From an uncultured Clostridium sp. (lineage in GTDB: Bacteria > Bacillota > Clostridia > TANB77 > CAG-508): DNA of 64,000 nt. A model generated the notes under the pieces. That model did not search any database and was not told the origin of the DNA. It saw only the letters and a list, made by a program, of their open reading frames with translations. A program made the translations under genes and the position numbers. The stretch covers positions 7,567 to 71,566 of the forward strand of contig CAMYVO010000003.1 of the NCBI GenBank assembly GCA_947302485.1, written 5' to 3'. The stretch's first letter is position 1, and every line of letters starts with the position of its first letter. This document shows, piece by piece, positions 59,497 to 61,611 of this stretch.

Positions 59497-61611
59497 ATGG
59501 AAAGATTAATGATTTCACAACTAAGTTTAGTAAGAGGAGAAAATGAAATACCAGGAAATTTCACAGCAGTAAGAGGAGAATACTATATTAATTCAATAGA
59601 AAAAACTGGATTTTTTAAGTTAAATGGATGTATGTTAGATGCACAAAATGATGAAGATCTAAGAGAATTACTTGCTTCAAAAATAATGGAGCAAATACAA
59701 TTTCCACATGCTGATATCATTCCTGCAATTGATGATAATGGAGAAAATGGTTGCTTGTCTGTAAATATATTAAACGAAAATGAAGAATTTATTGATCTAA
59801 GCAAAACAGGACAATATAGACCAATAAATAGTATTGAGGACTTTATAAATAATGATTTAGATCAAATATCATCAATTCCAGGTATAACTTCTGAAGATTT
59901 AAGATTAAGAAGAGAATATTTATTAAAGTATATTTTGGTATCAGCATTAATTTCAAATACTGATATTAAATCGGATAATATGTTTATTATACAAGATGCT
60001 TCTACAGGTAAATATAGAAATGCAGAGTATTATGATATGGGACTTTCTTTTATAGAATGTAATAATAGAAAATTCTTTGGCAAATTTTCTTCAAAACAAA
60101 TAATAGAACAACTATATGAATTATATCCAAATCAAATTGCACAATTTGGAAAAATGATACAGGAAAAGCTTAATGAAAAATATATAGAATCTTTATTAAA
60201 TGAAGATTTTTTAAATGAATTTTCAATTGAAGATAGAGAATTGATAATGCAACAATTGAAAGATAGAATTAATTTTATTAAAGAATTAAATTTTAGAGAA
60301 CAAAATGAACTTGCACAGCAAGATAAAATAACAGATACCGAGGAAGAAGAAAATGACAAGAAATTTAAAAATAGTATACCAAACATAAATGATTTATCTA
60401 AACAGATATATGATGAAATTACAAAAAAAGGAATAGAAAGAATAAGATGCTTATTTTCCAGTGGTACATCTTTAAAAGAAAAGATACAATTTGATGCTAA
60501 AGAAGAGTATATTAAAAGAATGATTTTAGTCCAGATGGATATAGGAAAAATGCTACTTACTCATAAATATTCAGATTTAGGATGGGACTCAATACCTGAA
60601 TTCAATAGAAAGTCAAAAGAAATAAGAAGAAAACTTTTAACAAACGAAAACTTAAAATTTGATGAAGAAACTTTAAACTTACTTTTTAGAAATAGCTTAG
60701 GTATTACATCCCAAGATCAATATGAAGAGTGGAAAGAATTTATAGATAATAATGGACATAATGGAAAAACTTTCGATTCAATTTATTTTGAAGAAGAATT
60801 TAAAGTAAAATATGAAAACGAGAGAAATCCAATAAGAAAATTTTTTAAGTCGTTTAAATATAGACATATGAATAAAAACAGAGTATTAGAGGATTCTTAT
60901 GTTAAAAATGTAAGAGAAATGTTAAAAAATGAAATTTTAAAAAATCCTAATAATACATTTGAAGCATATAGAATAGTGCATAGCAATTTAGAAAGAGGAG
61001 TAATAGAGTACGAAAATATAGAAGAAATTGAAGATATTACAAGAATGGTACTTATTTCATTATCTACTAAGCAGTATATGCCTATCAGTATTGAAAAAAC
61101 ATGCAAGATGATTAGAGAAGAAATAAAAAGTGGATTAGGCTTATCTGGAAATGGTATGGAATATAGACAAAGACAAGTGACACTTGGTTCTAAATCTGGA
61201 ATAAGTAATAAACCAGTAATACAAACAATACCATTCGAAGAGATTCCTGATGTTATGAAAGGTTTTCAGGAAGAGTATCAAGAAGCATATAATAAGGAAC
61301 AATCTAAAGAGGATTATATAAGACAAATTACTAAAATTTATGCTGATTTTATTTATGTACAACCATATGAAGATGGAAATAAAAGAACAGCAACATGCCT
61401 TTTTAATAGTATGTTATGTTCAAAAGGAATAATTCCACCTCCAATAAGCTTAAGCAATGATGAACAATTAATAGAAGCAATATATATTGCAAAAGATAAG
61501 GATTATACTATGTTACAGGATATGATTATAGATAGATACAGAGAACTCAATGATTCTAATGGAAATACTGATAAAAAAGAGAAGAATATTGACAAAGAGT
61601 TTCAAAAATAG
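59497..61611 (+). CDS. large two-domain protein: N-terminal HipA_C-like kinase fold + C-terminal Fic/Fido domain with a degenerate active-site motif
   Basis: Residues about 140-180 (ILVSALISNTDIKSDNMFIIQDASTGKYRNAEYYDMGLSF) align with the HipA catalytic segment (WLIGATDGHAKNFSVFIQAGGSYRLTPFYDIISAF). Residues about 620-650 (FIYVQPYEDGNKRTATCLFNSML) match the Fic core HPFx[DE]GNGRxxR with His replaced by Gln and Gly by Lys. Confidence 0.45.
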   Translation: MERLMISQLSLVRGENEIPGNFTAVRGEYYINSIEKTGFFKLNGCMLDAQNDEDLRELLASKIMEQIQFPHADIIPAIDDNGENGCLSVNILNENEEFIDLSKTGQYRPINSIEDFINNDLDQISSIPGITSEDLRLRREYLLKYILVSALISNTDIKSDNMFIIQDASTGKYRNAEYYDMGLSFIECNNRKFFGKFSSKQIIEQLYELYPNQIAQFGKMIQEKLNEKYIESLLNEDFLNEFSIEDRELIMQQLKDRINFIKELNFREQNELAQQDKITDTEEEENDKKFKNSIPNINDLSKQIYDEITKKGIERIRCLFSSGTSLKEKIQFDAKEEYIKRMILVQMDIGKMLLTHKYSDLGWDSIPEFNRKSKEIRRKLLTNENLKFDEETLNLLFRNSLGITSQDQYEEWKEFIDNNGHNGKTFDSIYFEEEFKVKYENERNPIRKFFKSFKYRHMNKNRVLEDSYVKNVREMLKNEILKNPNNTFEAYRIVHSNLERGVIEYENIEEIEDITRMVLISLSTKQYMPISIEKTCKMIREEIKSGLGLSGNGMEYRQRQVTLGSKSGISNKPVIQTIPFEEIPDVMKGFQEEYQEAYNKEQSKEDYIRQITKIYADFIYVQPYEDGNKRTATCLFNSMLCSKGIIPPPISLSNDEQLIEAIYIAKDKDYTMLQDMIIDRYRELNDSNGNTDKKEKNIDKEFQK

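Follow-up and report, generated by a model that had tools for sequence, protein, structure and literature searches.

A rare gene fusion joins a CtkA/HipA-type kinase-like module to a Gln-variant Fic-family protein in uncultured gut Clostridia

The kinases HipA and HipT and the Fic-fold toxin Doc phosphorylate essential cellular proteins, which in the growth arrest caused by HipBA and HipBST modules is an aminoacyl-tRNA synthetase, and a lysine in the Doc motif distinguishes this kinase-type Fic protein from the AMPylating Fic enzymes; mutating the signature histidine abolishes activity in the Fic and Doc enzymes that have been studied. HipL combines a core Hip kinase with a C-terminally fused presumed regulator, and the survey of Hip kinases by Gerdes et al. 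lists ten organisations, none with Fic or CtkA (PMC8262856). CtkA-type kinases carry a basic C-terminal type IV secretion system (T4SS) signal and are located on integrative and conjugative elements (ICEs), and one position of the Helicobacter pylori tfs3 ICE is occupied alternatively by ctkA or a Fic gene (PMC5536186). The histidine of the Fic signature is the catalytic residue, a side chain at the position of its second glycine was reported to prevent the binding of triphosphate nucleotides, and the non-canonical Fic domain of BepC, which has no known enzymatic activity, binds GEF-H1 (PMC8401265). Here, I describe a gene that joins a CtkA/HipA-type kinase-like module to a Fic-family protein, located in a 64,000-nt stretch (hereafter the window) of contig CAMYVO010000003.1 from an uncultured Clostridium sp. 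A preliminary description of this DNA had proposed a 704-aa fusion of a HipA-like kinase fold with a degenerate Fic domain, an interpretation that was partly supported here. Literature searches did not find a kinase-Fic fusion.

The kinase-Fic fusion is real and rare, and its halves come from known superfamilies, the kinase from HipA_C/CtkA and the Fic protein from Fic/Doc. The proposed architecture was confirmed by the uninterrupted reading frame and by an orthologue, P0002 (703 aa, 82% protein identity), on an independent 285-kb metagenome contig, where the fusion junction is identical and the frame is likewise undisrupted. These two sequences, both from metagenome-derived assemblies, are the only carriers, and the fusion is a rare architecture assembled from two uncharacterised subfamilies. 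According to BLASTP boundaries, residues 1-270 correspond to residues 1-271 of the 313 in the stand-alone kinase, whose final ~42 residues are gone, while residues 296-704 correspond to an entire stand-alone Fic protein. A 25-aa acidic linker (residues 271-295) sits where stand-alone kinases have their ~42-aa C-terminal tail, and pLDDT (predicted local distance difference test) is low at the end of the kinase model, near this boundary. The two segments quoted earlier were found at residues 154-182 (NTDIKSDN...YYDMG) and 621-640 (VQPYEDGNKRTATCLFNSML).

The ratio of nonsynonymous to synonymous substitution rates (dN/dS, Nei-Gojobori) between the window gene and P0002, a single sequence pair, was 0.33 for the whole gene, 0.38 for the kinase, 0.31 for the N-terminal helical domain of the Fic protein, and 0.24 for its Fic fold. 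Purifying selection thus maintains both modules, although their evolution is faster than that of the neighbouring genes (0.06-0.14). The linker showed a dN/dS of 2.09 over its 25 codons and 48% amino acid identity to P0002.

The kinase core begins at residue 1 and contains a Gly-rich loop (TAVRGEY, residues 22-28), the ATP-binding K41, the helix-C E57, the catalytic D156, an asparagine five residues on (N161), and the Mg-binding D180, these five residues being invariant in 32 sequences. With every catalytic residue intact, the module is probably an active, toxin-like effector. Its predicted fold is nearest to HipA/CtkA structures, the closest solved structure being CtkA (JHP0940, H. pylori, PDB 3AKJ) with 13% identity in the structural alignment. 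The link to HipA/CtkA emerged only from structure prediction and a widened family profile, which matched CtkA at 1.7e-12 and HipT(Lp) at 1.3e-4: direct Pfam and NCBIfam scans of the N-terminal module and a PDB search with the first family profile gave no HipA match, and a Pfam scan of the fusion protein for HipA_C (PF07804) gave none at E<=1. The relative P0079 gave E=0.021 for HipA_C; 20 of the 50 members of the widened family match it, and P0195 scores above the threshold (45.1 vs 30.5 bits). Residue 24 of the loop (59566..59568) is Ala in the window protein (T-A-V-R-G), while more than 90% of relatives, including P0002, have T-S-V-x-G; this Ser presumably lies at the autophosphorylation position of HipA (in its S-V-A-G loop).

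Unlike CtkA, the fusion has no basic C-terminal T4SS tail, its kinase C-terminus running into the linker and the Fic protein instead, nor is there an ICE or T4SS context nearby; the kinase relatives furthermore have a downstream 150-aa partner. It also differs from HipA, HipT and HipL: the HipA N-subdomain is missing, and so is any partner of the HipB, HipS, HIRAN, Stl-like or resolvase-like kind. The Pfam scan of the kinase module matched neither Couple_hipA nor HipS, and, in agreement with the earlier observation, no HipB helix-turn-helix antitoxin gene adjoins the fusion, which is flanked by queH and an ATPgrasp_ST gene. The absence of the N-subdomain, HipB and HipS excludes the fusion from the HipBA and HipBST modules. 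The PADLOC defence-candidate model PDC-M03A matched residues 48-184 (E=1.8e-8) and PDC-S04/SoFic matched residues 576-679 within the Fic fold (E=5.6e-13), both being remote matches to untested candidate models; no second component of PDC-M03 adjoins the fusion, and the neighbouring genes match no PADLOC model.

The C-terminal part contains a Fic fold and belongs to the Fic/Doc (Fido) superfamily, with Pfam PF02661 above threshold. Its N-terminal helical domain aligned with residues 5 to ~150 of the 415-aa stand-alone proteins and was modelled as all-helical with a pLDDT of about 80-94. Compared with the AMPylating signature, QPYEDGNKRTAT has Gln for the catalytic His, Lys for the second Gly, and Thr for the last Arg. 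These changes are fixed in 27 of 27 family members; Q, P, Y, G, N, K and R of the variant signature are likewise invariant in all 27. A further homology search with the Fic family returned close family members only, with no His-bearing relatives among them. An SxLE(K/R)G segment at residues 496-501 (Glu in 24 and Gly in all 27 members) aligned weakly with TVAIEGN of FICD (E=0.015), while no exact inhibitory motif (S/T)xxxE(G/N) is conserved across the family; the flap region YRQRQVTLGS lies at residues 556-565. The PHROG Doc-like match to the Fic module was weak (E=0.085). An internal duplication of Fic folds, raised when two tools placed different query regions on one region of the SoFic profile, was rejected by hhalign. 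Because Gln replaces the catalytic His and Lys occupies the second-Gly position throughout the family, the Fic module is unlikely to AMPylate and is more likely a pseudoenzyme-type binding module.

In comparison with the class II Fic proteins FICD/HYPE, BT_2513 and SoFic, the signature is QPYEDGNKRTAx and not HPFx(D/E)GNGRxxR, the exact (S/T)xxxE(G/N) is missing and there is an additional ~145-aa N-terminal helical domain; as the signature fails at three positions, this is not a canonical AMPylating Fic protein. The Doc toxin of phage P1 is taken here to share the motif D-(A/G)-N-K-R-T-A with the Fic module, including the Lys. The features of Doc-type proteins, namely an HxFx(D/N)(A/G)NKR signature, a length of ~125 aa and a Phd antitoxin, were not found, and with His missing, a different size and no Phd the module is not Doc. 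BepC and Bep8 of Bartonella resemble it in combining a conserved Fic fold with a non-canonical signature, but these are class I, T4SS-delivered FIC-OB-BID proteins of Proteobacteria, and their motif changes differ.

At all loci examined, the stand-alone kinase gene (~313 aa) was followed by a gene of 150-156 aa that overlaps it by 4-20 nt. The small partner has a conserved NFYRDYW motif, matched no Pfam or PADLOC model, and is, in contrast to hip modules, an unrelated protein encoded downstream. Judging from this arrangement, kinase and partner (Table 1) are a candidate new toxin-antitoxin-like or defence pair of gut Clostridia. The fusions in the window, P0002 and P0036 are without both the partner and the kinase tail, and tblastn detected no copy of the partner gene elsewhere in the window. 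The possibility that part of the Fic protein is homologous to the small partner or to the tail of the kinase was rejected by BLASTP and hhalign. The stand-alone Fic gene (415 aa) is abundant and solitary in at least three unrelated contexts. The kinase module was found at only six loci in 185,579 species-representative genomes, all of them metagenome-assembled genomes of uncultured Clostridia/Clostridiales, and scans of viral contigs, phage records and plasmid records found neither module; relatives came from Hadza, rumen and rabbit metagenomes. The kinase module is joined to at least four other unrelated domains (in P0036, P0086, P0087 and P0095), none of which is recognised by a family model, and this recurrence with unrelated fused domains marks it as a mobile effector-like module. 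P0036 (L003:6001-7884) has the same truncated kinase and linker start, followed by an unrelated C-terminal domain. Read from the sequence only, this domain shows a Cys...His...Asp protease-like pattern, and the N-terminal domain of P0095 contains HEFMH (HExxH).

In related genomes, the site directly after ruvB-queH holds either a solitary Fic gene (L001, L002), a kinase-partner cassette (L004, L008), or, in the window, the fusion, and thereby mirrors the alternation of ctkA and Fic at the H. pylori tfs3 position. Because occupancy of this site alternates, the simplest origin would be that two genes occupying one variable locus, either alternatively or side by side, became fused, the two being accessory genes that are otherwise separate in gut Clostridia.

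The reading preferred here, held tentatively and with somewhat less than even confidence, is that an intracellular, toxin-like CtkA/HipA-type kinase is the active part, and that the fused Gln-variant Fic protein is a non-catalytic regulatory or targeting module in place of the tail and partner. The fusion would be a cytoplasmic two-module protein. Its core would act as a Ser/Thr kinase and, if it works as HipA, HipT and Doc do, its target would be a protein essential to the cell, such as one involved in translation. The stand-alone kinase with its ~42-aa tail and translationally coupled ~150-aa partner would form a toxin-antitoxin-like pair; in the fusion, a flexible 25-aa linker and a complete 415-aa Fic-fold protein would replace both, and the Fic module as a pseudoenzyme would control the kinase in cis or recruit its substrates. 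Such a regulatory or targeting role of the Fic module, in which the domains may be in contact, is inferred, as are the activity, toxicity and targets of the kinase. This reading is supported by the intact catalytic set of the kinase, the toxin-antitoxin-like stand-alone cassette, and the precedents of HipL, BepC and the H. pylori tfs3 element. Further points in its favour are the loss of partner and tail in the fusions, the recurrence of the kinase module with unrelated domains, its PDC-M03A match, the varied contexts of the cassette, the invariant Fic motif, and the low dN/dS of both modules next to that of the linker. Several points weigh against it: no antitoxin or DNA-binding domain can be recognised in the small partner, and the Fic protein has no detectable similarity to the partner or tail that it replaced. 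The stand-alone Fic gene being solitary and abundant argues for a kinase-independent function of its own. Furthermore, the surroundings are cell-surface glycan genes with no obvious defence island, and Ala24 in place of Ser24 might alter the control of autophosphorylation, which the window copy may escape. In a more specific proposal, the Doc-like Fic half would be a conserved pseudoenzyme that lost catalysis but kept its target recognition and, as a substrate-recruiting or sensing arm, aims or gates the kinase. The fusion would then be a single-chain toxin-like or abortive-infection protein whose Fic half replaces a separate antitoxin; the target of this half may still be a translation factor, like the EF-Tu that Doc recognises. 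I regard this version as quite unlikely.

If instead both modules were active, with the Fic protein as a Doc-type phosphotransferase or another His-independent transferase, the fusion would deliver two modifications, and the acceptor would need no general base or the base would be supplied, for example, by an invariant His of the N-terminal helical domain. D626, G627, N628, K629 and R630 are strictly retained, as are the flap segment and many further positions, which suggests that a ligand-binding site is maintained. DGNKRTA is also similar to the Doc kinase signature, and no other part of the gene is as constrained as the Fic fold (dN/dS 0.24). Two active enzymes are nevertheless unlikely, as the signature His is catalytic (PMC8401265), a Gln cannot supply general-base catalysis, the motif has also lost its last Arg, and literature searches found no enzymatic precedent for the Gln variant. 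A secreted or injected effector with two payloads, directed at the cells of a host or of competitors in the manner of CtkA from H. pylori or of the Fic effectors from Bartonella, would fit the translocated kinase CtkA as nearest solved structure, the gut-associated organism (Hadza, rumen, rabbit metagenomes), and the modular architecture of one constant with variable modules. This is very unlikely given that reading the sequence revealed no signal peptide, LXG/type VII secretion-type domain or CtkA-like basic C-terminal tail, that the neighbourhood has no secretion-system genes, and that a coupled small partner, as in the stand-alone kinases, is typical of intracellular toxin control.

The neighbouring surface-polysaccharide genes would agree with a role in decorating cell-envelope glycans, with a sugar or small molecule as the substrate of an atypical kinase-fold module and the Fic-like module dealing with a nucleotide-activated phospho-donor. 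Elsewhere, however, both modules occur in unrelated contexts (after glyS, near proS, greA/ftsY or recombinases), and the best structural and profile matches are to the protein kinases CtkA and HipA/HipT, which renders this role highly improbable. Having only two carriers, both in metagenome-derived assemblies, might mean that assembly or annotation produced the fusion artificially, or that it is a recent accident without function. The chance of this is close to negligible and the idea already largely refuted by the two independent contigs, which share the same junction at 82% protein identity with an intact frame and with both halves under purifying selection, as well as by P0036, which has the truncated kinase and the linker start in common with the fusion.

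Table 1. Coordinates of the fusion gene and its parts in the window, and of kinase-partner cassettes at other loci.
Feature	Position	Strand	Residues and basis
Whole fusion gene	59497..61611	+	ORF (open reading frame) list; 704 aa + stop, reading frame uninterrupted
Shine-Dalgarno-like AAAGGA	59482..59487	+	read from sequence; 9 nt 5' of ATG
CtkA/HipA-type protein-kinase-like core	59497..60306	+	residues 1-270
Acidic linker	60307..60381	+	residues 271-295; BLASTP boundaries
N-terminal helical domain of Fic-family protein	60382..60816	+	residues 296-440; aligned with 415-aa stand-alone proteins
Fic fold	60817..61566	+	residues ~441-690; includes SxLE(K/R)G segment, flap region, active-site loop
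Variant Fic signature QPYEDGNKRTAT	61360..61395	+	residues 622-633; canonical = HPFx(D/E)GNGRxxR
Kinase-partner cassettes	L004:6001-7405; L008:6001-7384; L009:6001-7414; L014:5992-7400; L016:4841-6264

The window has a G+C content of ~25%, and a promoter scan upstream of the fusion gene gave matches no more numerous than in shuffled sequence. Downstream, the ATPgrasp_ST gene (61641..62703, +) has a +1 frame break near 62585-62595, where the sequence reads ACT AAC GAA CGG TCC and continues as AAC GGT CCT GTG TTT GTT GAG. The P0002 contig (L018) has the break in common in its orthologue (10142..~11204; 88.6% nucleotide identity, no gaps). With each half analysed in its own frame, dN/dS was 0.14 for part 1, while part 2 (~37 codons) had dN=0 and dS=0.41. 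Both halves are thus under purifying selection, and the gene looks more like a case of programmed +1 frameshifting or a tolerated split gene than a decaying pseudogene.

The contexts of the kinase cassette vary, sometimes lying beside serine recombinases, GNAT genes or a Zeta-toxin-family gene. L018 is homologous to the window only from 72 nt before the fusion ATG onward, and there a recombinase element occupies the place of the window queH. A DUF6870 gene and two tandem large serine recombinases lie directly upstream of the kinase gene in L018:3083-6800, L006:1622-5332 and L007:1470-5195, an arrangement that suggests a mobile element inserting at, or carrying, the kinase-gene locus. Directly upstream of or near the cassette, L004:4950-5987 and L014:3986-5023 encode a 345-aa protein that combines QueH with a GNAT acetyltransferase domain at its C-terminus, and a Zeta_toxin gene lies just downstream of the cassette in L008:7618-8523. 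At ~11 kb upstream of the fusion, the window itself contains a P-loop kinase gene of the Zeta-toxin family (47281..48204, +; Pfam Zeta_toxin E=2e-36), followed by a 259-aa ORF without a Pfam match (48375..49154, +). Before these genes lies one for a predicted 1617-aa surface protein (42095..46948, +) with a subtilase domain (Peptidase_S8), BspA-type LRR_5 repeats, Big_3 and six ChW repeats.

It is unusual for a conserved Fic family to have Gln in place of His, and for such a family to be captured by a toxin-type kinase; the fusion is, however, confined to two metagenomic lineages of uncultured bacteria, and its function is inferred. The H. pylori parallel suggests a recurrent evolutionary association of CtkA-like kinase and Fic families. 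Two uncharacterised families of gut Clostridia are exposed, a CtkA-like kinase with a coupled 150-aa partner and an abundant solitary Fic family, in which the fixed Gln for His raises the question of what role a Fic fold has without the catalytic base. If the preferred reading is true, toxin-type folds would be recombinable, and a kinase toxin would have lost its separate partner and gained a pseudo-Fic protein as a built-in regulator or targeting device.
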